The position numbers and the translations under genes were made by a program. A stretch of DNA of 64,000 nucleotides from Chloroflexota bacterium (lineage in GTDB: Bacteria; Chloroflexota; Limnocylindria; Limnocylindrales; CSP1-4), in assembly GCA_003156975.1 (NCBI GenBank), contig PMIE01000043.1:26618-90617 (forward strand), in the 5' to 3' direction. Position 1 is the stretch's first letter. Each line of letters begins with the position of its first letter. This document shows, piece by piece, positions 4,777 through 61,775 of the stretch. The notes under the pieces were generated by a model. That model had not been told where the DNA came from, made no database searches, and saw nothing but the letters and a program-made list of their open reading frames with translations.

Positions 4777-7233
4777 CTAGGCGGCCTCTCGGCGCCGCCT
4801 TCGTTTGGTGGATCGACCGAGCGCTCGATCGAGCTCGGCCGAATCCGCCGCCCAGGCTGCAATCGGCGCAGGCCTGGCCAGGTAGTAGCCCTGGCCGTAC
4901 TCCACCTTCAGCAACTTCAGCGTGGTCATTTCATTCTCCGTCTCGATCCCCTCGGCGATGAGTGCGCATCCGACGCTTTCTGCGAAACGGCACATTCCGG
5001 TAACCATTGCCTGCCGAGCCGGGTCGCTGTCGATGTTTCGAACCAGCGAGATATCCAGCTTTACGTACTGCGGCCGCAACTCCAGGATGTGGCGCAGCCC
5101 GGCGTAGCCGGCGCCGGCATCGTCTACGGCAAGCATGGCGTGGGATCGAACCTGGTCCAGGACCGCCATGAGTCGCGAGTAATCCTCGATCTCCGCATGC
5201 TCGGTGACTTCCAGCACGACCGGCCGATCGACCCTTGCCAGCACATCGAGCAGCGGCATCAGGCCTATTGCGAGCGCGGGCGAGACATTCAGGCTCACAA
5301 AGGTTCCTGCCGGCAGCCACTTTGCCTGCTCGACCTGGGCGTTGAGGCAGGCCTTCTCGAGCTGGACCATCATGCCCACCCTGTCGGCCGCAAGGAAGCG
5401 GAGGTCTGGTCGAGTTCCATCGTCGAATCGCGTCAGCGCCTCGAAGCCGACGTACTTGCGCGTGGTCAGTTCGACGATTGGCTGGAAGACTGGGGTGAAT
5501 GCCCGAAAGGCGATGACTTCCTTGACTTCTGCCTGCAGCGTTTCGCGTTGCCAGCGTTCCGACAGCATCGGCCCAAGGACGGCGGCCGACATGACGCTGA
5601 ACTCAGTCAGGGTCGCGAGCCGATCCGAGAGGCGGCTCGCGTGAGTGGGCGACGTGGCGCCCATCGACAGAAGGCCGATCGGCATGTCGTTCCAGATAAG
5701 TGGCGCGAGCGCTTCGGCCTGCAGACCCGAGGCGATCGTCGCCCGATCGAAATCGTCGCGCGGCACCCGGCCAGTCCACGATTCCAGCCACAAGCCGAAT
5801 TCCGCATGCTCCATGAGCTCGCGGCCGTTGCTGTCGGGGATCGGCTCCCCCACCGCCGCCAGCCGACAGGTCGACCCGCCCACAGCTATGGGCATGACGC
5901 CGATCGGGCTGAAGGCGTAGAGGACCACTGCGTCAATGCCATCGATACGCAACGCTTCTGAGCAGACCCGTTGGGCCGTCTCCTCGATTGTCGGCGCCGC
6001 CTCCAGGCGGGCCAGGGACACGGTCGTGGCAGCTCGCTCGCTCATCTCGGTGGTCAACCGCTCCGAGGCGGAGCGGGCTCGGCCCTGCAAGACCCTGAGC
6101 CGGACAACTGCGAGAAGGACCACCGCGCAGGTGCCGACCGCGATGGGGTCAATCTCGAGCGGCCGAGAGCGCGGCATCACGTCGAGAATCGCGCACCCAA
6201 CGATGGCTACGATCGGCAGCCACTCCGACGTCGCCCGGGCAAGACGGTCGTAGCGCCGTCCTCCACCACGCCCCAGGCTCCAGGTGGCGCCGCCAAATGC
6301 GGTGATCAGCGCCCCTGCCGGGAAAATGAAATCCAACGGTTCGATGCCGTCCGGCTTTCCGGACAAGATCCGCCCGATCAAGCCGTCCCAGGCCAGGGCG
6401 AGCAGGACGATGCCGGCGGTCACGGCCCACACGCCCCTACTCGACGGTTCGATCCGGAGAGAAATGGCGGCCACTGCGGACGCGGCCGCGCTGGCGAAGA
6501 AGAGCACCGAGACGAGAGGGACGAAGAGGTTGGCGGTGGGGTCGGCGAAGAGCGCGGCCACCTGGCTCCCCGGCATAAGGCTCTGGTTCATCCAGTTTGC
6601 GAGCACGAAGGTCGTCGATGCGGCAACTATCAGGAGACCGTCGAGAGTGACCGTCCGCCGAGCCTCACCCTCCAGCTGGCGATACAGGACGGTCATGAGG
6701 GTGACAACCCCCAGAACGGCCCCAACCACGTAGCAGACGTCGGATACCGCACGGATTGGGCCGATGGATTGATGGAGCAGGTCCGGCAGGGCGGCGATCA
6801 TCTGGCCGATGGCGGTCAGACCCAGGGCGATGGCCAACGCACGCCGCAGCCTGCGATGTTGCTGTTCACCGCGTGACGCAGCCAGGGCCACCGCAATGGC
6901 CGCGAAAGTGGGCGCTACCACCGCGGAGACGTCCTCGAACAGCAGCCAGTAGTTGCGAGGGTTGAGGATCTCGAGCACCGCTGCCATTGCGGTAATGGCG
7001 AGCCCAACGGTCAGCGTGCCCAGGCCCGGCCGGTTGGCGTACCCGGCCTTCAGCGCGAATGCATAGCCCCGAACGCAATTCCGGGCGCCCAGGACATGCC
7101 TGCCCGCGACCAGACGGCCTTCCGCCCGGAGGTTCACGCGGCCGTTCCTGCCCGACCGGCTCGGTCGTGGCGGCATTCGCTTGCCTGGTCGGCTCGTTCC
7201 ATGTCTACTCGCTACTGGGATACCGCCGCTCAC
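4777..7233 (-). CDS. membrane sensor c-di-GMP phosphodiesterase (polytopic TM region plus EAL domain)
   Basis: The C-terminal EAL domain shows VFQPIVELTT...YVGFEALTRF...QYVKLDISLVRNIDSDP...IAEGIETENE...QGYYLARP. The N-terminal ~350 aa contain many predicted TM helices. The start could lie downstream of 7233. Confidence 0.8.
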   Translation of the reverse strand: MSGGIPVASRHGTSRPGKRMPPRPSRSGRNGRVNLRAEGRLVAGRHVLGARNCVRGYAFALKAGYANRPGLGTLTVGLAITAMAAVLEILNPRNYWLLFEDVSAVVAPTFAAIAVALAASRGEQQHRRLRRALAIALGLTAIGQMIAALPDLLHQSIGPIRAVSDVCYVVGAVLGVVTLMTVLYRQLEGEARRTVTLDGLLIVAASTTFVLANWMNQSLMPGSQVAALFADPTANLFVPLVSVLFFASAAASAVAAISLRIEPSSRGVWAVTAGIVLLALAWDGLIGRILSGKPDGIEPLDFIFPAGALITAFGGATWSLGRGGGRRYDRLARATSEWLPIVAIVGCAILDVMPRSRPLEIDPIAVGTCAVVLLAVVRLRVLQGRARSASERLTTEMSERAATTVSLARLEAAPTIEETAQRVCSEALRIDGIDAVVLYAFSPIGVMPIAVGGSTCRLAAVGEPIPDSNGRELMEHAEFGLWLESWTGRVPRDDFDRATIASGLQAEALAPLIWNDMPIGLLSMGATSPTHASRLSDRLATLTEFSVMSAAVLGPMLSERWQRETLQAEVKEVIAFRAFTPVFQPIVELTTRKYVGFEALTRFDDGTRPDLRFLAADRVGMMVQLEKACLNAQVEQAKWLPAGTFVSLNVSPALAIGLMPLLDVLARVDRPVVLEVTEHAEIEDYSRLMAVLDQVRSHAMLAVDDAGAGYAGLRHILELRPQYVKLDISLVRNIDSDPARQAMVTGMCRFAESVGCALIAEGIETENEMTTLKLLKVEYGQGYYLARPAPIAAWAADSAELDRALGRSTKRRRRREAA

Positions 7234-9836: not shown

Positions 9837-10436
9837 ATGCCCAGTGCAGCACTGATCATCGCCGCGGTGGTGATCGTAGCCATCCTGACCCTGGTCGCAT
9901 GGTCTTCTGCCAGACGGCGTCGGACCGAGGGGCTGCGGCACAGCGCGCGGCTCCAGGAGCAATTCGGGTCGGAATACGATCGGACCCTGGCAGAGACGGG
10001 TGACGCCCGCAGCGCGGAGGCCGAATTGACGGCCCGGCAGGAGCGCGTCTCGGGGTTCGACATCAGGCACCTCGCGGACGACGAGGGCAAGCGCTTCGAC
10101 GACGAGTGGCTGGTCGTGAAGGCGAGCTTCGTGGACGATCCGTCTACGGCAGTCCGCGATGCCGACGCACTGCTCGGTCGGGTCATGTTGGCCCGCGGGT
10201 ATCCGGTCGCCGATTTCGAGCAGCGATCGGCCGACATCTCGGTGGATCACTCGCCGGTCCTCGCCCACTACCGGGCCGCTCATGAGATCGCGCTTCGTGA
10301 CGCCCAGGGTCAGGCGACCACGGAAGATCTGCGCCAGGCCGTCATCAGTTCACACGTCCTGTTCAGCGAGCTGGTGGAGAATCTCGTGCCGGTTGAGGTC
10401 GTCGCGGAGACGCCGGTTCTGGTCGCCGCACAGTAG
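9837..10436 (+). CDS. hypothetical membrane-anchored protein
   Basis: A strong RBS (AAGGAGGAG) precedes the ATG. There is an N-terminal TM helix ([18 protein letters not shown]) followed by a charged helical ectodomain or cytoplasmic domain. Confidence 0.6.
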
Positions 10437-17804: not shown

Positions 17805-19070
17805 GTGACGACTACACCAACTCCGGCGCCCCTGATCAACGGCCGTGACTTGTTACGCGACAATGGCCTGCCCGTCGAGGGGCCGATCCTGTGGGGTCGG
17901 CCGGTTACAGGCAGCGCTCCGGGCGTCTTCATCGTCGAGTTGCCCGCCCCACAACCCAAGGTCTCGATAGACCCGGATGCGATCCGCGAATGGCTGGGCC
18001 TCGCGCCGGGCCTCCGCCTCGATGGCAAGCGCCCCACTGTCGGCGAGTTGCAGACGCGGCTCGCGTCGTTCTGGCTGCCGAGCCAGGCCATCGTCTTCAT
18101 CGGCTCCAGCCAGAAATCGGTAGGGGCTCGCCTTGCCGGCATGTACAAGACCCCTCTCGGTGAGCGACGCCCGCAGCCGACCGGCTACTGGCTGAAGACC
18201 CTCCGCGACATCAACAAAGCCCGCATCTGGTGGGCCCCCGCATCGGACCCGGAGTTGTACGAAGACACCCTGCTCGAGGCCTTCATCAAGGCCGCCGGGG
18301 CTCTGCCGTATGGGGTTCTGGTCAGGCCGGGCGGCCAGGGCCGTGACCACGGTTTGACTGCGCCACTCCACGACGACGAGGCCGTTGCGCGGGCCAAGGT
18401 CAGGAAGGTCACACAGCTGGCGGACGCCAACGAAGAAGAGATGGCTGCGAGCATGTACCGCAGCGGCGCCAGACCACCGGTCCGCGTCAAGAAGACGACG
18501 CCGCGCAAGGTCGCCAAGCTCCCCCCCGCAACAACGGGACCATCCGCCATCGAGACTGTGGTGATCCGCAAGTCGACCAGGACGATCAATACGGGCGGAG
18601 CGCCCATTGCGCCGATCCACCTGACCGCCGACGGCCTGGCCGCCCTCCACTTCGAGCTGGACGAGCTGACCAACCGCCGTCGGCCCGAGGTCATCCAGCG
18701 CATCAAGTCGGCTCGTGAACTCGGCGACCTCAGTGAGAACGCCGACTACGAAGCCGCGCGCAAGGAGCAGTCCTTCCTGGAAGGCCGGGTCCAGCAGCTC
18801 GAGCAGATGATCAAGTACGCGGTCATGATCGAGGCGAGCCACGAAGGTGGCAGCGAGGTTGTCCTCGGCTCCACGGTGGTCATCGAGACGGACCGCCACG
18901 GCGAAGAGACCTTCACGATCGTCGGATCCGCCGAAGCGGATGCCGCGGCCGGCAAGATCAGCTTCACATCGCCGATTGGCCGGGCCCTGCTTGGTCGGCA
19001 TCCGGGCGAGACGATCCGCGTTCAGGTTCCGTCCGGCTCGCTCGACTACAAGGTGGTCCGGGTCAAGTAG
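17805..19070 (+). CDS. greA: transcription elongation factor GreA fused to a ~260-aa uncharacterised N-terminal domain
   Basis: The C-terminal ~160 aa are unmistakably GreA (ELGDLSENADYEAARKEQSFLEGRVQQLEQ; ...GSEVVLGSTVVIETD...GKISFTSPIGRALLGRHPGETIRVQVPSG). There is no in-frame stop between the N-domain, the basic linker (VRVKKTTPRKVAKLPP) and the GreA core. A GTG start is at 17805. Confidence 0.75.
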   Translation: MTTTPTPAPLINGRDLLRDNGLPVEGPILWGRPVTGSAPGVFIVELPAPQPKVSIDPDAIREWLGLAPGLRLDGKRPTVGELQTRLASFWLPSQAIVFIGSSQKSVGARLAGMYKTPLGERRPQPTGYWLKTLRDINKARIWWAPASDPELYEDTLLEAFIKAAGALPYGVLVRPGGQGRDHGLTAPLHDDEAVARAKVRKVTQLADANEEEMAASMYRSGARPPVRVKKTTPRKVAKLPPATTGPSAIETVVIRKSTRTINTGGAPIAPIHLTADGLAALHFELDELTNRRRPEVIQRIKSARELGDLSENADYEAARKEQSFLEGRVQQLEQMIKYAVMIEASHEGGSEVVLGSTVVIETDRHGEETFTIVGSAEADAAAGKISFTSPIGRALLGRHPGETIRVQVPSGSLDYKVVRVK

Positions 19071-22800: not shown

Positions 22801-23664
22801 CTAGAGCACGCCGCCGAGCGACAGCAGCCATCTCGCGGGCAGCGCGGTCGCGAACGCGATGAGGACACTCGCCAGCGTACCGATGACCGCGGCCTCAGAA
22901 GGCACCCGTCCCTTGCCGTATCGGCCGCTTCCAAACGCCTTGATCGCGGCTATGAACCCGGCGGCGGTGAAGTCGCCAATGACCGCGAGCAGGGTGATTA
23001 CGGTGCGCTCCAACATGCCGATCAGCGCGGGCACGCTTGAGTGCGCCGGTTCTTTGGTCTTCGGGTCGAGGATGTTGAGGAGCCTCTCGAGCACCGCCGA
23101 GGCGAGGAACAGGTTGACGGCCGTCAGCGCGACGGTGACGCCAACCACGAGTCCGGCGCGAAGAACGTGGTCTGCCGAGGCATCGATACCCCAGAACGAC
23201 TTGACCAACCACGACACCGGATCCAGTAACGCCCAGGAGCGAATAGCCCAGGACGGCGAGACGGCAACCAGCGCGACAACGCCGGCAACTGAAAACATCC
23301 CGACACGCGACATGCCGAAAACGACACCGGCCAACGGGGACCACTTCTCGGAGCCTATCGGGCGAGGCGCCGGGTCGACTCGGCGGATCACCAGGTCGGC
23401 GCCGTTGGCCACCGCAAGGTAGACAACCCAGAACCCGACCACGCACGCGATGGACATCGCGAGCTGAGTGAAGAGCAGCGGGCACAGGCCGATCAGAAAG
23501 GCGAGCAGCAGGCGCGCCACGAGCCTGGCGCCCTTCCGGCCCCTGAACTCCCTCCACCGATCGGGCGGCTGATACGGCCACCCAACCCGAAGTACCACGT
23601 CGACGCATGCCGCGGCGGCGATGAACCAGGAGATGGCCAGGACCTGCAAGAGGTGAGAAGTCAT
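22801..23664 (-). CDS. polytopic membrane protein (SatE/DUF3307-like partner of SatD)
   Basis: The ATG at 23664 overlaps the SatD stop as ATGA. Six to eight TM helices are predicted. The 5' extension of ORF 22801..24120 is rejected. Confidence 0.55.
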   Translation of the reverse strand: MTSHLLQVLAISWFIAAAACVDVVLRVGWPYQPPDRWREFRGRKGARLVARLLLAFLIGLCPLLFTQLAMSIACVVGFWVVYLAVANGADLVIRRVDPAPRPIGSEKWSPLAGVVFGMSRVGMFSVAGVVALVAVSPSWAIRSWALLDPVSWLVKSFWGIDASADHVLRAGLVVGVTVALTAVNLFLASAVLERLLNILDPKTKEPAHSSVPALIGMLERTVITLLAVIGDFTAAGFIAAIKAFGSGRYGKGRVPSEAAVIGTLASVLIAFATALPARWLLSLGGVL

Positions 23665-24365
23665 TTTGTCCCCCGTGATCCTTGGGTTGATGCGCCGGCA
23701 GGCGGCTCCGGACCCAGAAGAGGTGCCGGGCCATCGCCGGCAAACGCCGAAACGTAAACCTTCCGAATGCCATCGACGAGATGCTGGATCGAGCGTGCTC
23801 GCGCCCGGCTGAACGCCACAGAGATCGTGGCCCGGCGCACGCCCAGGCGTTCGGCGACTTCCGACTGGCGGAGGCCCTCGATGAGAGCCAGCTGCGCGAC
23901 CACGCGCTGTCTCACGGTGAGCGAGTCGAGCAGGTCGGCCAGTGCGGGCGTCAGGTCGGCGAGCAGGTCGTCGGCGTATCCGTCGCCGGTGACGATGACT
24001 ATCCGGTCGTGGGAAGTGCGAGCGGCGTTGATCTCCTCTCGGGCCTTCAGGAAGGCGTCGCCGGTCCGTTCCGTCGCTGGCCCCTTTCCCGCATGCACGC
24101 TGCCGTGAACGATCGCCCACCGCAGCGAACGCGCATCGGGCGCCAGCGCGGCCATCAACACCGCGGTCAGCGGGTCGGCCTCGACACGCAGGAGGCCCTG
24201 GAGTTCATCTCCCTGCGTGAACCCGAACGGCGCGATGCGTTGGTCGCCGTATTTCCCGTCAAGCTCGCCGACGAGCCAGCGCAGCCAATCCGCCGCCCCG
24301 GCCGCGTCCTTTCGCGACGCGACGACGTCCGCGAACAGAACGATCCCGGTAGGCCCTCTCTTCAT
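23661..24365 (-). CDS. SatD family protein (nucleotidyl-cyclase-like N-domain plus sigma-70 region-4-like HTH)
   Basis: VLFADVVASRKDA...FGFTQGDELQGLL is the SatD GDEFQGL-type motif. The C-terminal LTVRQRVVAQLALIEGLRQSEVAERLGVRRATISVAFSRAR is an HTH. Confidence 0.65.
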   Translation of the reverse strand: MKRGPTGIVLFADVVASRKDAAGAADWLRWLVGELDGKYGDQRIAPFGFTQGDELQGLLRVEADPLTAVLMAALAPDARSLRWAIVHGSVHAGKGPATERTGDAFLKAREEINAARTSHDRIVIVTGDGYADDLLADLTPALADLLDSLTVRQRVVAQLALIEGLRQSEVAERLGVRRATISVAFSRARARSIQHLVDGIRKVYVSAFAGDGPAPLLGPEPPAGASTQGSRGTK

Positions 24366-25462: not shown

Positions 25463-25739
25463 TCAGCGACATGACATCCATGGCAGTCGCGGGCAATTAG
25501 TCCTCATCCACGCCTCGAAGTCGGAGCGGTACGAAGGGGTACCGTGCTAGTACCTCCAGCGGGGTGCGTGCAGGCAACGACCACCTCATGATTCCGAGAG
25601 TCCCTTCATGTACCGTTTGGGACACTCGATACTGAGCTGATGTCTTGAACGGCCCAGCGCGTCGCCGGCCCGGGCGGGCGCAGGGCAGCTATCGCGGACT
25701 GATCGTCGGCGTCCTCTATTGGGACGTGGGACTGAGCCC

Positions 25740-26411
25740 ATGGAGATCAGCGTGAACGACTCGGCAGGGAATCACCCGACCCGTTTCCTTGCGGACCTGA
25801 CGCAGGCGATGCGTTCGACCGCTGAGGCGGCTCGTCTCTCGACAATCGAACAGTGCCGTCTCGACGCGCAGGCGTATGCCGAGCAGGTCAACGCTCGAAC
25901 CAAAGAGGAGTCCGAGCAATTCCGCAAGTCGGCCGATGCTGATGTCGCGACGATCCGCGAGCAGTCGAAAGCACGAATGGAGTTGATCCGGCAGGAAACC
26001 GAACGCCGTATCTCGCGCCGCCGCGAGCTCCTCGATCGCGATCTGGAGGAGTTCAACGCAGCCATAGGGGTCGAAGTCGAGAGCGTCCAGCATCGCGTCG
26101 AGGCATTCCAGAGCGAGGTTGCCGAGTTCTTCGAGCGGCTCCTTCAGGGCGGCGCGGATCCGACCGTCTTCGCGACTATGGCGTCTCAGATACCAGATCC
26201 GCCTTCCTTCGACGAACTCGACCCGAATACGCTGGCGAGCGATCTGCGGGCCCGGCGGCAGCAGGCCGAGCAGGAAGCCAGGGCTACTGCCTCGGGGACC
26301 TCACCGGCTGCGGCCTCGACAGGCGAAACGAAGGAGGCTCTCCCGGACCATTGGTGGCTGGATTCGCCAGCCAAGCTGGCGACAAGAGCCCACTCTGAAG
26401 GGCCTCAGTAA
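25740..26411 (+). CDS. coiled-coil protein, paralog A of a tandem pair
   Basis: MEISVNDSAGNHPTRFLADLTQAMRSTAEAARL... has heptad-rich charged helices through ~residue 130, then an acidic/Pro tail. It shares the N-terminal ~150 aa with paralog B. Confidence 0.65.
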   Translation: MEISVNDSAGNHPTRFLADLTQAMRSTAEAARLSTIEQCRLDAQAYAEQVNARTKEESEQFRKSADADVATIREQSKARMELIRQETERRISRRRELLDRDLEEFNAAIGVEVESVQHRVEAFQSEVAEFFERLLQGGADPTVFATMASQIPDPPSFDELDPNTLASDLRARRQQAEQEARATASGTSPAAASTGETKEALPDHWWLDSPAKLATRAHSEGPQ

Positions 26412-26754
26412 TCGGCTCTGAGCCGCACGCCGGCAAGTGATCCGGTCGCACTCCAGAATCTCAGTGCGCCGGCCGCGAGGGACTGCGGCGCAGTTCCCGA
26501 GCGATTTCGTTTGCATAAGCAGGGTCTGTTAGGCGGTACGTAAGGGCGGGTAGTCCTGGTACCTCCAGCGGGGTGCCTGGCGGCAACACCCGGCCCATCA
26601 TTCCAGCACGAAAAGCCCTCGTTGCTGGCCTTTGGACACGCGATAATGGTGCGTGGCCACGAGATCCAGCTCCGAGGGGCCCAAAAGTCGTGGTTGCGTA
26701 GTAACCTGAACGGAAGACTCCGGCGCTCGGCCGGAGCCCTGAGTCGTAGTCAAC

Positions 26755-27648
26755 GTGGAGATGAGCGTGAACGAGACGGCCGCGCGTCATCCGAACCGGT
26801 TCCTGGCGGACCTCACGCAGGCCATGCGTTCGACCGCCGAGACGGCGCGGCAAGCGACGATCGATCAGTGCCAGGCGGATGCCAAGGCATATACCGAGAA
26901 GCTGCACGCGCGGACTGACGACGAAGCAGCCTCCCTCCGCAAAGCCGCCGAAGCCGATGTCAGCGCAATTCGCGACTGGTCCAAGGCCGAGATGGAGCGC
27001 ATCCGCGTCGAGACCGAACAGCGAATCTCGCGTCGCCGCGAGCTTCTGGAGCAGGAGCTGCAGGAGTACAACTCTGCCATCGAACTCGAGATCGAGCGCG
27101 TCCAGAGCCGCGTCTCGGCCTTCGAAGGAGAAGTCGCCAACTTCTTCGAGCAGCTCAGCCAGGAGGCCGACCCCACGGTCTTCGCCAGCATGGCCGCTCA
27201 GATGCCCGACTCTCCATCCTTCGAAGAAGCGGAGCGCGGAAGCCTCGCACCGGACCTGCGCGCCCGCCGCGAACAGATCATGCGGGCAAGCCCAGAGGCG
27301 AGTGCCAGCCCGCAGACGGGCCCCGGAGCGGAGGACGCCGCCCCGGCGTCAAGCCAAGCCGCAGTCGCCAAGGCGGCCGCAGTCGAGTCCACTCAGGTAG
27401 TGGTCGTCGGACTCGTAAGCGTCGCCAGCATTGCCACCTTCAAGCGCCAGCTCGGCCGTCTGCCCGGCGTGAAGAACGTCGGCGTATCGTCCGGACCAGA
27501 CGGCGAGTTCATCTTCACCGTCGGACACGGCTCGGATACTTCGCTGAGCCAGATCATCCCAACTCTGCCTGCGTTCCAAGCCCGCGTCGTGAGCGAGCGA
27601 GATGGCGTCCTCAACGTCTCCGCACACGATCCGGAGGCGGAAGGCTAG
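26755..27648 (+). CDS. coiled-coil protein, paralog B, with an extra C-terminal alpha/beta domain
   Basis: A GTG at 26755 (or the ATG at 26761) gives (M)EMSVNETAARHPNRFLADLTQAMRSTAETARQ... The C-terminal VVVVGLVSVASIATFKRQLGRLPGVKNVGVSSGPDGEFIFTVGHGSD is a compact domain absent from paralog A. Confidence 0.65.
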   Translation: MEMSVNETAARHPNRFLADLTQAMRSTAETARQATIDQCQADAKAYTEKLHARTDDEAASLRKAAEADVSAIRDWSKAEMERIRVETEQRISRRRELLEQELQEYNSAIELEIERVQSRVSAFEGEVANFFEQLSQEADPTVFASMAAQMPDSPSFEEAERGSLAPDLRARREQIMRASPEASASPQTGPGAEDAAPASSQAAVAKAAAVESTQVVVVGLVSVASIATFKRQLGRLPGVKNVGVSSGPDGEFIFTVGHGSDTSLSQIIPTLPAFQARVVSERDGVLNVSAHDPEAEG

Positions 27649-27690
27649 ACTTCGCATCAGGCTCTCGCCTCTTCAGGGAGACTCCGTCAC

Positions 27691-28977
27691 GTGGCTCGGT
27701 CAGCTGTAGCAATCGCTCTTCCGCCAGCCGAGTTCGGCGCGGTCAGCGCACAGCTTCTTGAGGCTGGCTACGAGCCGATCGAAGTCAAGACGGCCGATGA
27801 CCTGGAGGCGCTGCTCAACAGGCGCCGAGATATCGGCGTGGCAATTCTCGACGGCGAGAACGACTTCGACCGGACCCTCGAGATGTACGCGTTGCTTCAC
27901 GACGAGGATCGCAACATTCCGGCCCTGATGGTGGTCGCGGCCCGCGCCCTTGATCGTATGAGCCTCGCCGGGAGAGCCCGCGTCAACGACGAGTATTTCA
28001 CCCGGCCCTACTCCGCCGAGTCGCTGCGATGGCGGGTTGAGGCGATGCTCATACGGGCCGAGATTCCCGTTGAGGACATGAGCAGCGGGATCATCGAAAG
28101 CTCGGCAGAGGCCTCCGCGTCGGCGGCCTCGTCGGCAGCCGCGTCGGTCGCGTCCGGCGAAAGCCCCCGTGGCCAGATCGTCATCGTCTTCAATCCCAAG
28201 GGCGGCGTCGGCAAGACGACGATCGCCGTCAACGTGGCCGCTCTCCTGCAGGTCCGAAAGAACCAGCAGGTGCTACTCGTTGACTGCGACACGGTCACCG
28301 GCCACGTTGCCTCATCGCTCGGCATGGAGAACATTCGTACCGTCGCCGACGCCTGGACGGAAGACCTCAACACGGGCGTCGCCGAGTCCTTTGCCGAGAT
28401 CGCGACGCAGCACCAGAACGGTGTCTCCGTGCTGGTCATGGCCGAATCGCCGCTCCACACTGAGATCCTCGAGCCCAAGCGCGTCGCAGAAGCGATCACG
28501 ACTGCCTGCCACGTGTACGACTGGGTGATCGTAGACATGCACCCGGACTACGGGCCGCTCAATCAGGTCATTTTCGAGCGAGCCGACAAGATCATCGTCC
28601 CGGTCACGCCCGACGTGCCCGCCATTCGGGCCGCAGTCCAGCTGCGCGAGGTTGCCGTTGAGCTGGACATTCGCGAGCGCCTGGCCATGGTCGTCAACCG
28701 CGCCAACAGCGGCGTCTCGGTCGCCGATATGGAACGAACGGTTGGAATGCCGGCCCTGGCCGAGGTTCGCTCTGCGGGAATGCTGTTCGTTCGGGCCGCA
28801 AACGAAGGCCGCTCGGCGGTGGAGCGGTTCCCCAAGGAGAAGGTCATCGACGACATCGAGCTGCTGTGCACTCGGATGATGGCGACCCGCGACTCGGGCG
28901 AGGCCAAGTCCGGCCAGGGCTTCATGGGCATCTTCTCCGGGGGTCGGAACACGAACCCCTCGATGCGCGCCTCTTAG
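27691..28977 (+). CDS. pseudo-receiver plus ParA/MinD-family P-loop ATPase (TadZ/CpaE/Ssd-like orphan)
   Basis: The GTG at 27691 has AGGGAG 10 nt upstream. The N-terminal CheY-like fold lacks the acidic pocket. A deviant Walker A (VFNPKGGVGKTTIAVN) is present. The ATPase domain has MinD/ParA features (LLVDCD, DWVIVDMHPD). Confidence 0.8.
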   Translation: MARSAVAIALPPAEFGAVSAQLLEAGYEPIEVKTADDLEALLNRRRDIGVAILDGENDFDRTLEMYALLHDEDRNIPALMVVAARALDRMSLAGRARVNDEYFTRPYSAESLRWRVEAMLIRAEIPVEDMSSGIIESSAEASASAASSAAASVASGESPRGQIVIVFNPKGGVGKTTIAVNVAALLQVRKNQQVLLVDCDTVTGHVASSLGMENIRTVADAWTEDLNTGVAESFAEIATQHQNGVSVLVMAESPLHTEILEPKRVAEAITTACHVYDWVIVDMHPDYGPLNQVIFERADKIIVPVTPDVPAIRAAVQLREVAVELDIRERLAMVVNRANSGVSVADMERTVGMPALAEVRSAGMLFVRAANEGRSAVERFPKEKVIDDIELLCTRMMATRDSGEAKSGQGFMGIFSGGRNTNPSMRAS

Positions 28978-35510: not shown

Positions 35511-38432
35511 TCAAGAGCCGAAAAGCGGCAGCTGCTCGCCGACCGTATCCGCGATCGCATCGAGACCGAGATACGGCTCCAGGTCCGCCAGCGTCGCCTC
35601 GGGCCGGGCCGCGAACTCGACCAGGTGGTTCCACTTGATGAAATGCCAATTGCGCTCTTCGATCGCCTTGCGCAACAGCGGCGAGCGAGCCAGCTTGACC
35701 TTCACCAGATCGGCCCTCTCCGGCGGGATGACCAGGAACCGAACGACCTTGTCCTCTTCCGGGTAGCGCGCGTGGCGGGTCAGAACGGGTTCACCGAGCA
35801 TTGCCGTCCATTCGACCTCGAACAGAAAGCTCGCCTTGCGGCGGACGTACCAGGCGCAGTCGACTCGCTCGAGCTCGCCATCGGGAGCCCAGGCGATGAG
35901 CGGCAGATGGATTTCGTGTTCCGCCGTATCCAGCCGATCCGCGAGCGGGCGGCCACCGACTCTGCGATCCTGCTGGCGCTTGCCGATCCAGACGCTCATC
36001 CCCAGGTTGTGGCCGACATCGGCCAGCAAGGCGATGATTCGGTCGTGGTCCGCGGTGCGGCCTTCCAACTGCTCGAAGCCCGCCACCGACTCTGGGGTGC
36101 TCCCTGGAGCAAGGTAGCTGGCGAAACAAGCCTCCACGAGATCGCGGTCCGGGGCTTCGCGGCCTTTGAACATGGCCATGACTCGCTCGAACGCGGCCCG
36201 CTCTGTCAGATGACCCGCCGACGACAGGAGCGAAAAGACCCCCCACTCCACCCTGTCGGCCAGCGGTTGCGCCGCGACGCCGCGATCCTCGTCCGAGGCC
36301 AACCAGTACTGGCCGGGCTCTATCTGGCGGATGCCGCGATTGTTGGGCCGGTCCAACTCCTCATGGATGATCTGGATCAGTTGCGCCACCGGATCCGTGC
36401 GTGAGGCTTCATCGGGCATCCCCAGAATCGTCCGCACCGCGGCACGGGCCGAGTCTCCCGTGGAGACTCCGGTGGTGGCGCGGCTCCTCGCCACCTCCTG
36501 GACCTTGCCGTCGGCGGTCGTGTCGCTCGATGACGCGTCGACCCAGGCCGACCACCCATCGTCGGCGTGGTCGGGCCGCAGAACCCGCGCCAGACGGGCG
36601 AGCTGCCCCGAAGCGTCGAGCCCAATCAGGACATCGCCGAGGATGTGATCGAAGTTCGCCGGCTCTCCTCTGGCCTTCAGCAGCTCCACAGCAGTATCCG
36701 TAATCGCCTGGGCGGCGGCGCCTACCCGGAATGGACCGTCGTCGAGTCTCTCGGGCGCCGCGAAGGCTCCCCGGCCCGGAATGGTTCCGGGGTCGCCGGC
36801 CCCGCCCTCCACCGGCGGCAGCGGACGATTGGCCCGCGTCCGCGGCCCGGGCGCCATGACGCCGGTTCCCGGCACGAAGGCGACGATGCCGGGACTGTCG
36901 TCCCCGCCCCGATGAAGACGGGCATCGATCAGACGACAGCCCGCCGCCGCTCCGCCGAGAGCCGCCGCGACCAGAGTGGCGGGCTGGGCATCGTCGAGCA
37001 GCAGAACGGCCCGACCTGTCTGCGCGAGAGCCGGCGTGGCGATGGCCAGTGACCTGCCCACGGCTCGGGCCAGATCCACCGCTTCCTCTTCCGGGGTCGG
37101 CTTCGACGTGGGCTTGAACAACTCGTCGTGCGGCAGAAGGGCCACGGCGGCCGCCCCAAAAACCCAGCCCGTTCCGTGATACAGCGCCGCGAGCCGTTCC
37201 GGCGTCCAGCGAAGAGGCGCCTGCCCCAGAACGAGCCTCACGCGCGATTGCGACCCGGAGTGGGCCATCCGCTCGCCGTGGAGCCCGAGACGGCGCAGCG
37301 AGCCTGGTGTCGCCTCTCCGACGGTCACATTGGCCGTGGTTCCCTCCAGAGTTGAGATATCGACGCCGGGGCGGGCCAGAGCGGACCGTGGCGTCCCCGA
37401 TTCGAGACTGAGGCAGAAGGACTTGACCAGATTCAACCCGGCCTCGAAGGCCAGCCACGGGTTGAGTTCGTGCCACTCGCGCGCGGTCGGCACCTTGAGG
37501 ACGCCGTTGGCTATGCGAACCGGCGCAGGCTTGCCCTGAGTAACGTTCAGCCGGCTCGCCAGCAGGACGGCGTGGAGGAAGGCGAGGCGGAGCGCCGCGG
37601 TGAGGGCTCCGTCGCGATCCTCCGCATCGATACGAGTGAGGATCGCATGCAACCCCAGGAGCTGGCGCGGCGTGTGGAGGTCTACGAGCTGATCCACAAG
37701 AGGGTGCGTTGGCCGTGGCGCCGGAAACCGCCGCCGCATCGCCTCGCGAACCTCACCGCTCGAAGGGACCGACTCCGCAAGCCGGACGTCGCCGAGGGTG
37801 AAGACCGCCGACCGAAGCTCGGCGCCGCCTTCCTTGGCCTGGCAGTACGGGCACCTGTACTCGCGGGCAATCGGGCGGAGAAACTCCTCCGGGCCCGCCT
37901 GCAACTCGTGAACGGGGCCCGACAAGGCAGGTGTGCGGGATGCGGAGGCCTTGGCGCGGCTGCGCCCCGGGGACTTGCCCGCGGCGATGCCCTCGGCCCG
38001 CACGGGCACGGCCACAGGCTGCCAGACCATTGACTCCAGGATCACCGGGCGGCTGCACGTCGGGCAGACGCTCGCGTAGAGCGCCTCGATGGTCCTCCGA
38101 ACCGTAGAACCGGAGAACGGCGAGTTCGAGATAGCCGTCATGGCGGACTCGACCTGGCGCACGTTAGGCGGACGAAGAACTACATCGGCGAGCAGCCTCG
38201 TCAGTGGCCAGATTTCATAGTCCGCGGCCCGGCGTTGCTCCGCGATCGCGGCCCGAGCAACCCAGCCGCCACGGCCGTTCAGGTCCAGGACCACTTCGCC
38301 CGGCTTGGTTCCCGCTTCAATTGCCGCGACACATTCCGATGCCGGGGCGGGTGGGCAGAGGCGCTCGAAAAATGGCAGCGTGGGAACGCTGGCGAGCACA
38401 GGCTCGGGGTTTGTGGCGGCACTCCCGACCAT
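35511..38432 (-). CDS. large (973 aa) protein with a SAM-MTase motif-I-like segment, two Zn-ribbon CxxC pairs and a C-terminal nuclease-like region (DUF1156/COG1743-like?)
   Basis: EVVLDLNGRGGWVARAA at residues 46-62 resembles methyltransferase motif I. CPTC (123-126) and CPYC (194-197) form a candidate zinc ribbon. The C-terminal ...VDCAWYV...FLFEVEWT resembles a PD-(D/E)xK core. Composition is protein-like throughout. Confidence 0.55.
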   Translation of the reverse strand: MVGSAATNPEPVLASVPTLPFFERLCPPAPASECVAAIEAGTKPGEVVLDLNGRGGWVARAAIAEQRRAADYEIWPLTRLLADVVLRPPNVRQVESAMTAISNSPFSGSTVRRTIEALYASVCPTCSRPVILESMVWQPVAVPVRAEGIAAGKSPGRSRAKASASRTPALSGPVHELQAGPEEFLRPIAREYRCPYCQAKEGGAELRSAVFTLGDVRLAESVPSSGEVREAMRRRFPAPRPTHPLVDQLVDLHTPRQLLGLHAILTRIDAEDRDGALTAALRLAFLHAVLLASRLNVTQGKPAPVRIANGVLKVPTAREWHELNPWLAFEAGLNLVKSFCLSLESGTPRSALARPGVDISTLEGTTANVTVGEATPGSLRRLGLHGERMAHSGSQSRVRLVLGQAPLRWTPERLAALYHGTGWVFGAAAVALLPHDELFKPTSKPTPEEEAVDLARAVGRSLAIATPALAQTGRAVLLLDDAQPATLVAAALGGAAAGCRLIDARLHRGGDDSPGIVAFVPGTGVMAPGPRTRANRPLPPVEGGAGDPGTIPGRGAFAAPERLDDGPFRVGAAAQAITDTAVELLKARGEPANFDHILGDVLIGLDASGQLARLARVLRPDHADDGWSAWVDASSSDTTADGKVQEVARSRATTGVSTGDSARAAVRTILGMPDEASRTDPVAQLIQIIHEELDRPNNRGIRQIEPGQYWLASDEDRGVAAQPLADRVEWGVFSLLSSAGHLTERAAFERVMAMFKGREAPDRDLVEACFASYLAPGSTPESVAGFEQLEGRTADHDRIIALLADVGHNLGMSVWIGKRQQDRRVGGRPLADRLDTAEHEIHLPLIAWAPDGELERVDCAWYVRRKASFLFEVEWTAMLGEPVLTRHARYPEEDKVVRFLVIPPERADLVKVKLARSPLLRKAIEERNWHFIKWNHLVEFAARPEATLADLEPYLGLDAIADTVGEQLPLFGS

Positions 38433-41767: not shown

Positions 41768-42634
41768 TCAGCCCCTCCGAACGAAGACCCGCAGCTCGCC
41801 GGCCCACAGCTGGAGGTCCAGGACAACTTCCTCCGTTCTGATCAGATATCCCGTCAGTTCGAGCAGTTCGTTGTATTGCGGGATGGCCTGCTGGACGGTC
41901 TGATTGGCCAGACCGCCGTACGGCGGTTGTTCCGTGACGTCGTAGGCGCACCAGCGACCGTATCGGTCGACATAGGAGCGGTCCGACTCGCTCAGCGGTT
42001 CCGGCAGAGGATCCACCCAGGCCGCTCCATATGCCTCGAGCGTCCAGTCCGCGGCCGCATCGCACATCAAGACGAGCCCGTCGGCGAAGGTCAATTCGAT
42101 CGGGCCGTCGCTCGTGTTCACCTCGCCCTGGAACACGTAGTGGAGCCGCCGGATGCGCGTGATCTCCCGGCCCACCAGAGCTGGCGGGACGGATAGCCGG
42201 TTGGCGCGATTCCAGCCTTCGTGGCGCGGCAACCGCGCTCCCGGGGTCATGACCAGCGTCCGGAAGAGATGGTCCAGCGTGGCGGCGCAATCGCCGGTCA
42301 ATCCTGTGTGCACCTCGGAACGCCCGACCATCGTGCTGCTCGGCGATGACAACCAATGAAACCTTTCGGCCTTGGCGAGCGCCGCGATCGGGCCGGCGGA
42401 CGAGTCACCGCGGGCGACTCGCTCTATCCCCGCAAGCTGAGCGGCGATCTCATCCGCGTCGCAGTCCGGAGCGAGCGCCGTGAGACGGGTCACGTCCAGG
42501 CCCGTCCGGGCATCCAGGAAGCGCCGCTCCCTGCAGAACAGGACGACGCCGGCATTGATGAACTCGGCCCGTTCGACGCGTGGAACGGCCCGCAGGACTG
42601 TATACGTGAAGGGACTACGCGCCTGTGCGGACAC
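41768..42634 (-). CDS. DUF3037 domain protein with a C-terminal extension (partner of the HipA-like kinase)
   Basis: The GTG start has AGGAGG 6 nt upstream. The N-terminal FTYTVLRAVPRVERAEFINAGVVLF matches the DUF3037 consensus (YvPD..RgEfvNvGVil). Its 5' end overlaps the upstream kinase gene by 20 nt. Confidence 0.7.
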   Translation of the reverse strand: MSAQARSPFTYTVLRAVPRVERAEFINAGVVLFCRERRFLDARTGLDVTRLTALAPDCDADEIAAQLAGIERVARGDSSAGPIAALAKAERFHWLSSPSSTMVGRSEVHTGLTGDCAATLDHLFRTLVMTPGARLPRHEGWNRANRLSVPPALVGREITRIRRLHYVFQGEVNTSDGPIELTFADGLVLMCDAAADWTLEAYGAAWVDPLPEPLSESDRSYVDRYGRWCAYDVTEQPPYGGLANQTVQQAIPQYNELLELTGYLIRTEEVVLDLQLWAGELRVFVRRG

Positions 42635-43394
42635 GTTCCGCCTCCTGCGCGAGTGCTCGATGGACGGCCAGTCGACGGTTCAGGTAGTCGAGATATGCGG
42701 CCCTGTGGGCGGCTGGGTCCGGCAGGCCATCCTGCGGCACCAGCCAATCGTCGGGCACGGCCTCGACTATCGAGCGGAAGAGTTCCGCGGAGAGCAACGG
42801 GGCGAGCCGGTCGTCCGCTTCGACGATCGAGCCGGCGAGCGGCAGCAGGACGTGGCTCTTGATTGCGGCCAGCGGCTTGCGAGCGTGGGCCGGGACGTCC
42901 TTCCAGGTGTGGTGGATGTACAGGGCCGAGCCGTGGTCGATCAGCCACAAGCGGCGATGCCAGACCAGCAAGTTCGTGTTGCGGGCGTCGCGATCCACGT
43001 TGGTGACGAAGGAGTCGAACCAGACGACGGCTGCGCAGACATCGGCGGGAGGCCTGAAGCCGGCGGCCGGATCAAGGCCCAGAGAACCGGGCAGGAAGTC
43101 CAAACCAACGTTCACGCCGCTGCTGCGCTGGAGCAGTTCCCGGATCTCCTGGTCGGGTTCGGCGGCCGCCAGGCGCGGGTCGAAGTTCACGAGCACGATC
43201 TCCGGGACGAGCAGCCCAAGTGCCCGGGCGATCTCTCCGGCAATCAGCTCGGCGACGAGGGCCTTCTCGCCGTGACCTGCGCCACGGAACTTGGCCACGT
43301 ACAAGCCGTCGTCGTCAGCCTCAACCACCGCCGGCAGCGAGCCACCCTCGCGCAGCGGGGTCACGTAGCGTGTAGCGGTGACGTGACGGATCAC
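42615..43394 (-). CDS. HipA-like Ser/Thr kinase domain protein (PI3/4-kinase-like fold)
   Basis: FVTNVDRDARNTNLLV...WLIDHGSALY matches the HipA catalytic-loop consensus (GNTDRH.KN...D). LYVAKFRGAGHGEKALVAE is a Gly-rich loop. Length is 259 aa. Confidence 0.65.
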   Translation of the reverse strand: MIRHVTATRYVTPLREGGSLPAVVEADDDGLYVAKFRGAGHGEKALVAELIAGEIARALGLLVPEIVLVNFDPRLAAAEPDQEIRELLQRSSGVNVGLDFLPGSLGLDPAAGFRPPADVCAAVVWFDSFVTNVDRDARNTNLLVWHRRLWLIDHGSALYIHHTWKDVPAHARKPLAAIKSHVLLPLAGSIVEADDRLAPLLSAELFRSIVEAVPDDWLVPQDGLPDPAAHRAAYLDYLNRRLAVHRALAQEAERVRTGA

Positions 43395-46512: not shown

Positions 46513-48039
46513 TTACTTGGGCGCCTCGGATTGCCACGCCTCGACTACGCGGTCGCGGCCGGTTCTCTTGGCCGCGTAGAGCGCCCTGTCGGCGCGTTCG
46601 ACGATTTCGTCGATCGGCTCGCCCGCGAACTGCCCGGATGCCACGCCGACCGAGACGGTGACCCGTTCCTCCACGCCGGCCTCGGTGAGGTCCATCTCGC
46701 GCACGTTCTGGCGGATCCGCTCGCCGATCTCCAGAGCGATGCCATGCGACGGGTTGCGCAGCAGGACGGTGAACTCCTCACCGCCGAAGCGGACGGGCAC
46801 GTCCTCCTCCCGAACGGACAACTGGATGGCGTTGGCGATCGATCGCAGAACGATGTCGCCGGTCTGATGCCCATACCGGTCGTTGAGCAACTTGAAATGG
46901 TCGACGTCGATCGTCACGATGGCGACGCGATCGCTGGATCTGCGGCGGCTCGCGATCAGCCGGCAATACTCGTCGAAGTAGCGGCGGTTGGGGAGCTGTG
47001 TCAGCTGATCGGTTCGGGCTTCAGACTCGGCGGCCTGGTGCGAGTAGACGCGAGCCAGCGCCGCAGAGGCCTCGAAGGCAGCGCTGTTCAGCAGCCTCAC
47101 TGCGGCCTCGGGCCAGGCCTCGCTGGTCCGGCGCGACAGGACGATTGCGCCGGCGATGACTCGGCCCGATTGGAGCGGCGCGGCCAGGGTATTGCGCAGA
47201 CCGTAGACGTCCCGAAGCCGGTAGGCGATCCGGTCCGCTACCTCGCTGGCTTTCGCCTCCGCCTGGAAGGCGTTCCGGGAGCCCGTCCGTATGTTGCTCC
47301 GGAACGTGGCCGTCGCCACGTCCGCGGCCCCTGCCGGATCGCCCGAACGGTCGTGAGGATCGCGCCATACCGGAGTCGGGTCGCCGTCGACGAACCGCAG
47401 GGGCGTTCGGTGGGGCGCCTGTCCGGACAGCTCGCGCAGTCGGGCCTCTACCGGTTCCAGCTGGCGCAGCGGCATGACCGTATTCGACGCCGGCGTGCCG
47501 GAGAGCATCGACACGAAGGTCACGTCCAGGACCGTGCTTCCGGGCCTCAGTCGCACCACGGCGACGTGGTCCGCTTCGGTGGCTGCGCCAAGCTCGTGGA
47601 CGATCGCCTCGACCACCGCGTCGGGCGAGACCGATCGCGACAGGGCCCGCAATATGCGGCTGAAGCTCTCCGCCTCCGAGTTGCGCCGCTCCACTTCGAT
47701 GCCGGAGGCTCGGGCGTTCATGACCGCCGACGAGACGAGGCCGGTGATCGCGATCGACAGGGCCAGCTCCATTACGCCGCCGTGATGGACGAAGTACGCA
47801 ACGAGCCCCTGGCCCAGGAGAAGGACAACCGACATCGCGAGCAAAGCCCATGCCAGGAGAACGCGCGGAGCTCGCGCTCCTCCGTGCTCGTCGGAAGGCT
47901 CGTCGGCGCGAAGCCGGTTCGAAAGGGCCGACTGCCCAGATCGGGTACGGCGTCCAAGCCACCTGAGGGCCAGATCTGCCGGACCGCCGCGAGCCAGGAA
48001 GGCCTGGACCCGCAAGGCGACCGCGCGGAGGACCCACAT
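46513..48039 (-). CDS. diguanylate cyclase (TM/GAF-like sensor plus GGDEF domain with an active GGEEF site)
   Basis: RFGGEEF, LTQLPNRRYFDE and DVDHFKLLNDRYGHQTGD are present. The start is placed at MWVLRAV (48039). Upstream in-frame sequence is ambiguous. Confidence 0.8.
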   Translation of the reverse strand: MWVLRAVALRVQAFLARGGPADLALRWLGRRTRSGQSALSNRLRADEPSDEHGGARAPRVLLAWALLAMSVVLLLGQGLVAYFVHHGGVMELALSIAITGLVSSAVMNARASGIEVERRNSEAESFSRILRALSRSVSPDAVVEAIVHELGAATEADHVAVVRLRPGSTVLDVTFVSMLSGTPASNTVMPLRQLEPVEARLRELSGQAPHRTPLRFVDGDPTPVWRDPHDRSGDPAGAADVATATFRSNIRTGSRNAFQAEAKASEVADRIAYRLRDVYGLRNTLAAPLQSGRVIAGAIVLSRRTSEAWPEAAVRLLNSAAFEASAALARVYSHQAAESEARTDQLTQLPNRRYFDEYCRLIASRRRSSDRVAIVTIDVDHFKLLNDRYGHQTGDIVLRSIANAIQLSVREEDVPVRFGGEEFTVLLRNPSHGIALEIGERIRQNVREMDLTEAGVEERVTVSVGVASGQFAGEPIDEIVERADRALYAAKRTGRDRVVEAWQSEAPK

Positions 48040-48496
48040 GACCCTGAGCAGCGCAGCACCGACCAGGACGCGCAGGGAGAGTCCCCCTGGGTCCCTCCCA
48101 TCAGGATTCTGGGCACGGATCAGGCTCACCAGGGAAGCATGCGCCAAATGGGTCGGATTTCTCGTCGTTCCGGCGGGTACATGGAGGCTAGGGAGACCGG
48201 TACTTCCGTTCAATCTGTCCTTCTCGCGCGTTGACCCAACGCACGAATGCGGACTACACTCCCGCTTGGTCGAGGCAATGCCCGCAGGGGTTGCTGCGCG
48301 CCTCTCGGCCAGCCCCAATCCGTTTCGGAGGATATCTCCCTCAGTGGAGACCGGACCCCGTACCAACGGCGTCGCACGCGCTGACAGCGCGCCCCACGCC
48401 GAAATCCCTCATCTGGTCCGCCCGGCCCTCTAGCGGTGTGCGCCCTCCGGCGCAGGCCACCGACTGGCGGGGATGGACCCGCCGTCGAGGTGGCAT

Positions 48497-52185: not shown

Positions 52186-52323
52186 GTCCGGAATGATGGC
52201 AGGGCCGCGTCGATCCTGCGCCCGGTGCGCGTCGGCCGCGCACGACTCGGCCGGCGCCAGCGCCGCCCTGCCGGCCCCGACGCCGAACCTGTGCGGACCA
52301 ACGCGGGCCGCTACCATTGGCCC

Positions 52324-53445: not shown

Positions 53446-53475
53446 CGACCGGCCGGGCAGAGGCGAAGACTCCGA

Positions 53476-54873: not shown

Positions 54874-54882
54874 CTCCAGACT

Positions 54883-56103: not shown

Positions 56104-56297
56104 CTGGACGCGAGGGTCGCACATGGCTGGAGAGCCCGTCAACCGTGAGGATGGCATTCGCGGCGATCTGCGGCAGAGGGGCCTGACGCGGTACTCTCAG
56201 GGATACCAGGCTGCTTGATGGCCGCCGAGTGGAATCCGTCACCGCTCAGACATCAGCCGCAGCCGTCGAGTGGAACTGTGGCGACACCGGAGGAATC

Positions 56298-59011: not shown

Positions 59012-59085
59012 TGGTCGAGGACTCTATCAGTCTCTGCGCGAGGCCGCTGCCGGGTGACGATCGAGCCGCGGAGCGGCGTCCGAGC

Positions 59086-60159: not shown

Positions 60160-60243
60160 TGCAAAGATAACTCAGCGACCCGCGAATGCCGGCGCCACCA
60201 GCGCTCACCACCTCAGCGGACCAACTGGCCGCGCGAACCTGCG

Positions 60244-61725: not shown

Positions 61726-61775
61726 TTTCCGGTCGGGCGGCGGCCGATGCGCTTGCGGATTGGTCGCGCGGTTCC

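Follow-up and report, generated by a model that had tools for sequence, protein, structure and literature searches.

The window considered here is a stretch of 64,000 nucleotides (nt) of contig PMIE01000043.1, from a Chloroflexota bacterium, and positions are counted from its first letter. Three co-oriented genes lie near its middle on the forward strand, as do all the features described within them. These include a gene for a coiled-coil protein of 223 amino acids (aa) without a C-terminal domain (paralog A, 25740-26411), a gene for a related, conserved partner protein of 297 aa (paralog B, 26755-27648), and a gene for a 428-aa protein in which a pseudo-receiver precedes an ATPase of the ParA/MinD type (27691-28977). 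The GC content at third codon positions (GC3) is of the coding type, 0.72-0.82, in all three open reading frames (ORFs). The relation between B and the ATPase is the main subject of what follows. A first-pass annotation, made from the sequence alone, had looked to the Actinobacteria/Thermoleophilia for the relatives of this DNA. The homologs that bear an organism name, with taxon labels taken from the records of metagenome-assembled genomes (MAGs), are Candidatus Limnocylindrales/Limnocylindria or "Chloroflexi/Chloroflexota" MAGs, and the window therefore belongs to the uncultured class Limnocylindria (Chloroflexota) and not to an actinobacterium. Members of this class abound in soils, peat, and lakes but are essentially uncultured, and to our knowledge nothing is known of their cell biology. 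A search of the literature found no description of the B-ATPase pair or of cell organization in the Limnocylindria.

Conservation of the B-ATPase pair

Relatives of B were found by pattern scan in 328 GTDB species, each represented by one genome. Synteny was assessed in the best 80 of these 328 matching species loci, onto which A, B, the C-terminal domain of B, the ATPase, and the neighboring genes were placed by tblastn; protein searches took in the best 120-150 matches per protein. The conserved core of the locus consists of B and the ATPase. In all 75 informative loci the receiver-ATPase gene follows a full-length B on the same strand, at a distance of 5-63 nt from its 3′ end, and the synteny in relatives that the first-pass annotation had asked about is thus present for these two genes. 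Of the five loci outside this count, two lie at a contig end and three carry a lone paralog that lacks the C-terminal domain. The pairing persists down to 37% identity in B and 42% in the ATPase, and in two gene-called distant loci (L083 and L084) the two genes are separated by 7 and 3 nt, respectively. Among the best 120 matches, identity is at least 76% for B and at least 82% for the ATPase. The flanks of close relatives are those of the window, with ThyX upstream and MscS/IclR downstream. In distant relatives the intervening genes, on the other strand, encode MoaA, a purine-nucleoside-phosphorylase-family protein, and acetyl-CoA synthetase, and ThyX is sometimes inverted. A functional tie of the pair to ThyX or MscS was considered and rejected, since both are displaced or inverted in these distant relatives.

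Genes of other systems in which ParA/MinD-type ATPases take part were sought in the surroundings of the pair. Pfam scans revealed no T2SSE, T2SSF, Flp, or TadE domain, either in the main ORFs of the 64-kb window or within 13-21 kb around five loci of relatives (L001, L002, L058, L083, and L084). The earlier remark that Tad/Flp genes are absent nearby is borne out to this extent, and a dispersed tad locus, which the first-pass annotation had named as grounds for abandoning its candidate, was likewise not met with in the neighborhoods inspected. MinC and MinE domains are missing among the ORFs of the window and in the inspected neighborhoods, and Pfam found no ParB domain in B, the gene directly upstream of the ATPase.

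Paralog A stands outside this core. It is indeed a paralog of B, as had been claimed, with 111 identities over 175 aa (63%, E value 1e-75), and the two have a peptide in common (NHPTRFLADLTQAMRSTAE in A, RHPNRFLADLTQAMRSTAE in B). The triad of A, B, and ATPase had been put forward as the unit to be traced in relatives, and this unit has to be given up: A orthologs lie between ThyX and B in about 24 loci of close relatives, about 21 other such loci are without A (for example the 1.1-Mb contig of L001/L007), and A is missing from all distant clades. A is a clade-specific duplicate, carried by about half of the close relatives. Most of its orthologs are intact, with 3 of about 24 truncated or frame-shifted, and A is not a decaying copy. 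A C-terminal motif specific to A, LPDHWWLDSP (26340-26369), is kept in most A orthologs, usually in the form [LP]PDHWW[LM]DSP, with PRGRWW in its place in one subclade. A third type of paralog was seen in two loci (L056, about 5998-6900; L061, about 5989-6930). Its N-terminal part is again the helix module, but its C-terminal part, about 150 aa long (…YEELAVIYRGRGDAEAEISILERFARQEHAPG…), is of another kind, and the gene sits elsewhere in the genome, away from any ATPase. A few homologs carry odd taxon labels (Acidimicrobiaceae, Sulfotelmatobacter, Dormiibacterota) and may come from mis-binned contigs. Among them is a 5.8-kb contig labeled Acidimicrobiaceae (PMLI01000335.1, locus L051) with a copy of A that is 99% identical to that of the window; this contig has probably been mis-binned and would derive from Limnocylindria of the fen population to which the window belongs.

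The pseudo-receiver ATPase and protein B

The ATPase matches AAA_31 in Pfam (1.9e-19), and also CbiA, ParA, and MipZ. Its best sequence match in the PDB is 3ea0, deposited as "ATPase, ParA family" (E value 8.6e-13), followed by MinD and Soj; 3ea0 is presumably a TadZ-type ATPase domain. Every curated NCBIfam model stays under its cut-off, namely ParA_partition (NF041546) with 70 bits in two stretches against 180, CpaE_hom_Actino/Ssd (TIGR03815) with 65 against 154.45, and the MinD models TIGR01968/TIGR01969, with 52.9 against 212.9 for minD_bact and 56.9 against 201.75 for archaeal MinD. For this reason the protein is assigned by sequence to the ParA/MinD superfamily but to none of its named subfamilies. 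In an alignment of 69 orthologs drawn from related loci, the deviant Walker A motif PKGGVGKTT (28195-28221) is invariant in 69 of 69 sequences, as the first-pass annotation had led one to expect of its KGGVGKT ATPase. Because K170-G-G-V-G-K175-T, D198xD200, and the Walker B aspartate D282 are all invariant in this alignment, the protein should be able to bind and hydrolyze ATP. Its GTG start codon is preceded at 10 nt by the Shine-Dalgarno sequence AGGGAG.

The atypical receiver domain occupies residues 3-125 (27697-28065) and gives weak matches to receivers of the PhoB/OmpR kind. In the same 69 sequences the Mg-binding D12/D13 of CheY are replaced by L10/P11, which are invariant, T87 by V82, and K109 by R105. 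The phospho-acceptor aspartate (CheY D57) is retained as D54 in 68 of the 69. The description of this domain as a receiver without its acidic phospho-pocket is thus accurate for both Mg-binding acids, which are gone together with T87 and K109, but not for the acceptor itself. At the other end of the protein, the tail after the ATPase domain is poorly conserved. A short hydrophobic motif is present there in nearly all 69 sequences, and a strict pattern of four hydrophobic residues in 51 of them. In the window this motif is QGFMGIFS (28915-28938), a hydrophobic patch with basic flanks. Its variants include GF[LM]GIFxGGRN in the clade of the window and SLLKNLFGRK, GFRLFxRxK, F[GS]LFxRxK, and GFRLPxRAR elsewhere. 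Some of these versions appear strongly similar to the membrane-targeting sequence of MinD, and membrane binding by the ATPase may reasonably be inferred.

The B family is unannotated. A and B were compared, as single sequences and as a profile and with 79 members scanned, with Pfam, NCBIfam, PHROGs, PADLOC, and the PDB, and gave only sub-threshold coiled-coil noise; the earlier proposal to look for a known family thus ends with B outside all families named in these collections. The family is large, with 1344 homologs in a 90%-clustered collection and 1077 clusters at 50% identity in a representative library, 821 of them with an E value of at most 1e-10. Identity with ATP synthase b or FliH was rejected, as A reaches at most 14.7 bits where 211 are required and B gives no score, and as both sequences are without the N-terminal hydrophobic segment that serves as a membrane anchor. 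A role as a defense system was also dismissed, there being no meaningful PADLOC match and the gene order being that of a core chromosomal region.

B was modeled by AlphaFold2 with an alignment of 79 sequences. The model comprises a long helix of about 125 aa, two short helices, a disordered stretch (residues 182-208) with a predicted local distance difference test score (pLDDT) below 50, and a compact C-terminal domain. The long helix (residues 13-136, 26791-27162; pLDDT above 90) starts with RFLADLTQAMRSTAE and continues with hendecads and then heptads. In the family profile its hydrophobicity peaks at a period of 3.68, with a power that is reached by 1 of 2000 shuffles. Hendecads, which are 11-residue repeats with sparse hydrophobic positions, extend over residues 39-91 or so, and heptads are regular only at about 91-134. 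The helix had been called heptad-rich, which is apt for this last part but not for the hendecad center with its period of 3.68. Many polar residues along the helix, including charged ones, are invariant, and these would set it apart from a purely structural coiled coil. A disordered linker of acidic residues, alanine, and proline follows at residues 178-210 (27286-27384; low pLDDT) and ranges from 30 to more than 400 aa in homologs. The cysteine-free C-terminal domain (27385-27621) has a predicted ferredoxin-like (HMA-like) structure, with the order β-α-β-β-α-β-β and a pLDDT of about 90 over residues 211-289, and when modeled alone it reaches a predicted template modeling score (pTM) of 0.70. 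By these models it is a generic ferredoxin-like fold. A metal-binding HMA domain was considered and rejected, since a cysteine-free domain is without the CxxC metal site. As had been noted from the ORFs, the domain is confined to B.

Most B homologs are longer than that of the window, at 370-680 aa. The long form begins with MATT[DE]x[RK]xGFRLPW[ST], followed by 50-180 residues of low complexity rich in acidic residues, alanine, and proline, by the helix, which opens with RFLADLxRAMRxxAE, by a second low-complexity linker, which can reach about 400 residues and contains the small motifs DPRLxxLGL and AARLAGLVPS, and by the C-terminal domain. The peptide MATT[DE]x[RK]xGFRLPW occupies residues 1-14 in 93 of 101 long-form homologs and in all 29 long-form loci carrying a match. 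It is near-invariant across clades whose helices share only 37-57% identity with that of the window, and in 0.96 Mb of related loci the GFRLPW motif is confined to the N-termini of B. None of the six frames of the window encodes a GFRLPW peptide, and the A and B ORFs of the window cannot be extended upstream. The first-pass annotation had proposed that the peptide shared by A and B at their N-termini activates the ATPase. That peptide forms the beginning of the long helix; in most members it is internal, 60-190 residues from the N-terminus, and the proposal does not survive in this form. MATTDxRxGFRLPW would fit better as a candidate for the usual ATPase-activating peptide, one that was lost in this organism. 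In some of the clades with long-form B (loci L052-L084, for example L083 at 10001-10060), the tail of the ATPase, GFRLP or GFRLF, resembles the GFRLPW peptide of B. A shared docking site or a shared membrane affinity is possible as the source of this likeness.

Relation to known systems and a proposed spatial module

ParA/MinD ATPases are a general bacterial means of placing chromosomes, division rings, organelles, and envelope machines. They form ATP-sandwich dimers that bind a matrix via their C-terminal regions, and the N-terminal region of a cognate partner, which is usually encoded in an adjacent gene, contacts and stimulates the dimer (PMC11407121; PMC7993993). Judged by these general rules, B is proposed to be the cognate partner of the ATPase. 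By analogy the module would function in the manner of a ParA/MinD ATPase and its partner; the ATPase looks like TadZ/CpaE. It has the receiver and the Walker A motif of TadZ/CpaE and differs from that group in locus and model score, from MinD in model score and the absence of MinC/MinE, and from ParA in model score and the absence of ParB.

The resemblance to TadZ/CpaE lies in the order of an N-terminal atypical receiver and a ParA/MinD ATPase domain and in the naming of homologs as "CpaE" by public annotation pipelines. The sequence KGGVGKT, which is also the canonical ParA/MinD motif, fits the K/RGGxGxS/T consensus given for TadZ (bioRxiv 10.64898/2026.07.08.737194). In contrast to TadZ/CpaE, the window ATPase is in no tad locus among those inspected, falls under the NCBIfam CpaE/Ssd cut-off, has the full KGGVGKT with both lysines as well as a hydrophobic/basic tail motif, and always has the B gene on its 5′ side. 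The TadZ/CpaE-like architecture outside a tad locus that was described at first is therefore confirmed, both here and in the inspected relatives. Ssd (Rv3660c-type, TIGR03815) is a CpaE-like ATPase of Actinobacteria with a proposed role in division-site control. It is among the two best NCBIfam matches, over the ATPase domain, but the window protein scores under half of the cut-off and comes from a different phylum, and mycobacterial ssd, which we take to lie beside tad genes, differs in this from the window ATPase. MinD is similar in its deviant Walker A and in having an adjacent partner gene, and its membrane-targeting sequence is resembled by the basic-flanked hydrophobic tail motif of the ATPase family (for example SLLKNLFGRK). 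Unlike MinD with MinE and MinC, however, the window ATPase carries an extra pseudo-receiver, has no minC or minE nearby, and is paired with a protein unrelated to MinE. The ParA of ParABS systems differs as well, NF041546 being under its cut-off and the upstream gene B being without ParB domains.

Further parallels are found among systems with coiled-coil partners. In the PomX/PomY/PomZ system of Myxococcus, PomX has the layout of long-form B, namely a conserved N-terminal peptide with a basic residue, Ala/Pro-rich disorder, and a coiled coil (PMC7993993). The window also resembles this system in having two coiled-coil proteins beside one ATPase. There is, however, no sequence similarity; PomZ, a DNA-binding protein, is without a receiver, B carries a further, ferredoxin-like domain at its C-terminus, A and B of the window are without the N-terminal peptide, and their paralogy has no counterpart in PomX and PomY, which are mutually unrelated. 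PodJ is a coiled-coil-rich protein. In the pairs PodJ-CpaE of Caulobacter and RomR-TadZA of Bdellovibrio, a polar landmark or hub recruits a TadZ-type ATPase, and B could be a landmark of this kind (bioRxiv 10.64898/2026.07.08.737194). These pairs differ in serving Tad machines encoded together with the ATPase, and B is without homology to PodJ or RomR. McdA/McdB is likewise a system of two genes, in which the cargo is marked by a small coiled-coil protein, disordered in part, that partners a ParA-type ATPase (PMC11407121). McdA, unlike the window ATPase, is without a receiver and binds the nucleoid; there are no carboxysome genes here, and there is no sequence relationship.

The reading preferred here, with a probability of about one half, is that B and the ATPase form a cognate, co-transcribed pair, a ParA/MinD-type spatial-organization (positioning or landmark) module specific to the Limnocylindria. 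It is supported by the persistence of the pair where flanking genes change and by the high conservation of both proteins, and also by the recurrent tail motif of the ATPase, the PomX-like layout of long-form B, and the absence of tad genes from the window and the inspected neighborhoods. In such a module the ATPase, with its catalytic motifs intact, would form an ATP-sandwich dimer, and the hydrophobic/basic motif of its C-terminal tail would attach this dimer to a surface, most probably the membrane. B would oligomerize through its helix of about 125 residues and act as the partner of the ATPase, either as a scaffold or landmark or as an ATPase-activating protein, and its ferredoxin-like C-terminal domain, borne on a flexible linker, would bind cargo or the pseudo-receiver of the ATPase. 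We infer a physical interaction of the two proteins, membrane binding, stimulation of the ATPase, and a positioning role, with the division site, the nucleoid, or an envelope machine as candidate cargo. In most of the family the likely ATPase-contacting element would be MATTDxRxGFRLPW with the disordered acidic stretch that follows it. The clade of the window would have lost the N-terminal peptide and shortened the linker, and about half of this clade would have gained A, in which the helix is retained and the C-terminal motif, containing WW, is new. A would probably co-assemble with B through the shared, 63%-identical helix and thereby alter the valency or the output of the complex.

Several points weigh against a positioning module of this kind. 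The combination of a pseudo-receiver with a ParA/MinD domain is that of TadZ/CpaE, by analogy with which the ATPase would be a localization hub and not a pattern-forming ATPase. A and B of the window, together with the whole clade to which they belong, are without the GFRLPW peptide, so that a model with an activating peptide cannot apply here unchanged. The tail motif of the ATPase is rich in glycine, contains proline in some clades (GFRLP), and lies 8-15 residues from the C-terminal end, on which account a MinD-type amphipathic helix is at most a candidate here. The TadZ/CpaE likeness also leads to a rival explanation, in which the ATPase is a dispersed TadZ/CpaE that localizes a Tad (Flp) pilus machine encoded elsewhere and B is a coiled-coil landmark or recruiter like PodJ or RomR. 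This, the chief rival, is held to be unlikely. In its favor, an atypical receiver followed by a ParA/MinD domain is the architecture of TadZ, and polar landmarks recruit TadZ-type proteins in other bacteria (bioRxiv 10.64898/2026.07.08.737194). CpaE_hom_Actino/Ssd is among the top NCBIfam matches at 65 bits, the best PDB match is the entry deposited as "ATPase, ParA family" (3ea0), and many homologs are named "pilus assembly protein CpaE" by JGI. That score is nevertheless far under the cut-off (65 against 154), the ParA and MinD models score about equally, and the structure of Eubacterium rectale TadZ is absent from the PDB matches at E values up to 0.001. In published accounts tadZ belongs to the tad locus and lies beside tadA (PMC11407121; bioRxiv 10.64898/2026.07.08.737194), and no such genes are present in the window or the inspected neighborhoods; moreover, TadZ-like ATPases are known in systems other than Tad, such as TsfV of T7SSf (PMC11217815).

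The helix of B is open to another reading, in which A and B are primarily amphipathic-helix proteins of membrane or lipid surfaces, akin to apolipoprotein, PspA, or perilipin, and the ATPase regulates their assembly without positioning any cargo. The period of 3.68 in the 11-residue repeats at about residues 39-91 agrees with this, as do weak recurrent matches to Apolipoprotein A1/A4/E in 50 of 79 family members. These matches score 25 bits against a cut-off of 90, which is typical of compositional or coiled-coil similarity, and hendecads fit a right-handed coiled coil equally well. The invariant charged residues and the separate conserved globular domain point instead to specific protein contacts, and a role chiefly at lipid surfaces is regarded as improbable. 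It might also be supposed that the adjacency of B and the ATPase is without meaning, B being an unrelated structural coiled coil that shares an operon with a generic ParA-like ATPase. Coiled-coil proteins are common, and the link between the two genes is drawn from sequence alone. Such chance company is highly improbable, however, when 75 of 75 informative loci keep the pair at 5-63 nt while the flanks change and when both B and the ATPase show an unusual degree of conservation.

More tentatively, and with some doubt, the preferred module can be extended to a class-wide, undescribed system of cell organization. Here a TadZ-architecture ATPase uncoupled from pili would work with a new partner family, by way of its GFRLPW peptide, its hendecad/heptad coiled coil, and its ferredoxin-like head, to place a core structure, for instance the division site or an envelope machine, and the clade of the window would be a rewired version that lost the peptide and gained the WW-motif protein A. 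Another orphan ParA/MinD system is in itself no surprise to specialists, yet each new pair of ATPase and partner has so far shown how specificity arises. What is new here is an unannotated family of partner proteins, built of three conserved modules with disordered linkers between them, and a TadZ architecture that is retained class-wide with tad genes in no inspected neighborhood. A natural experiment is offered by the one clade in which the presumed contact peptide is gone and a paralog has been added, and the small size of the proteins suits them to heterologous and in vitro work.

Upstream element, start codons, and neighboring genes

An element of about 70 nt, …GGTACG.AAGGG…GTACCTCCAGCGGGGTGC…GCAAC…CATSATTC, precedes A and B, in each case by about 190 nt, on the forward strand. 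There are exactly two copies in the window, one before A (25527-25595, core GTACCTCCAGCGGGGTGC at 25550-25567) and one before B (26536-26605, core at 26559-26576), and the two intergenic regions align there. Because the same conserved element precedes both genes, the duplication that gave rise to A took in about 250 nt of upstream sequence. The copy on the B side is kept about 190 nt 5′ of B in many close relatives. In RNAalifold the CCUCC of the element pairs with the Shine-Dalgarno GGAG. Tested as an RNA, the element has no Rfam match, no covariation in RNAalifold, and a single-sequence fold z-score of -1.1; since covariation, an Rfam match, and unusual fold stability are all missing, it could be a promoter or operator as well as a leader. 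The start codons of A and B probably lie 12 nt downstream of the listed ones, at GTG codons at 25752 and 26767, with proteins that would begin M-N-E/D, because the Shine-Dalgarno spacing is conserved in relatives. In these relatives the first GTG/ATG of the B ORF is mutated, and the Shine-Dalgarno GGGGAG and a GTG 6 nt later are retained.

Several other genes of the window were recorded in passing. On the reverse strand at 22801-24365, the gene for a SatD-like / sigma-70 region-4 protein (23661-24365) precedes that of a multi-pass membrane protein, assigned to DUF3307 in relatives; the two are kept together upstream of ThyX in close relatives and are found near the locus in L083 too. A 421-aa ORF at 17805-19070 (forward strand) has GreA/GreB domains at residues 272-421 only, preceded by a 270-aa N-terminal extension without a Pfam match. 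On the reverse strand at 35511-38432 lies a 973-aa ORF without a Pfam match. A gene of similar size (1001-1015 aa) occupies a comparable place past a DUF885 gene in L001 and L002, and is paired with the ORF of the window by size and position only. A HipA-like kinase (PF20613, 42615-43394) adjoins a DUF3037 protein (41768-42634) at 41768-43394 on the reverse strand, and the two may be a toxin-antitoxin-like or regulatory pair. Genes related to cyclic di-GMP encode a PilZ-domain protein (3628-4545), an EAL protein of 818 aa (4777-7233), and a GAF-GGDEF cyclase (46513-48366). A cell-envelope polysaccharide cluster at 51076-62417 comprises four GT4 glycosyltransferases, a UDP-glucose/GDP-mannose dehydrogenase, a LytR-CpsA-Psr ligase, a dTDP-4-dehydrorhamnose 3,5-epimerase, and, with a match below the Pfam cut-off, a flippase-type polysaccharide-biosynthesis protein.

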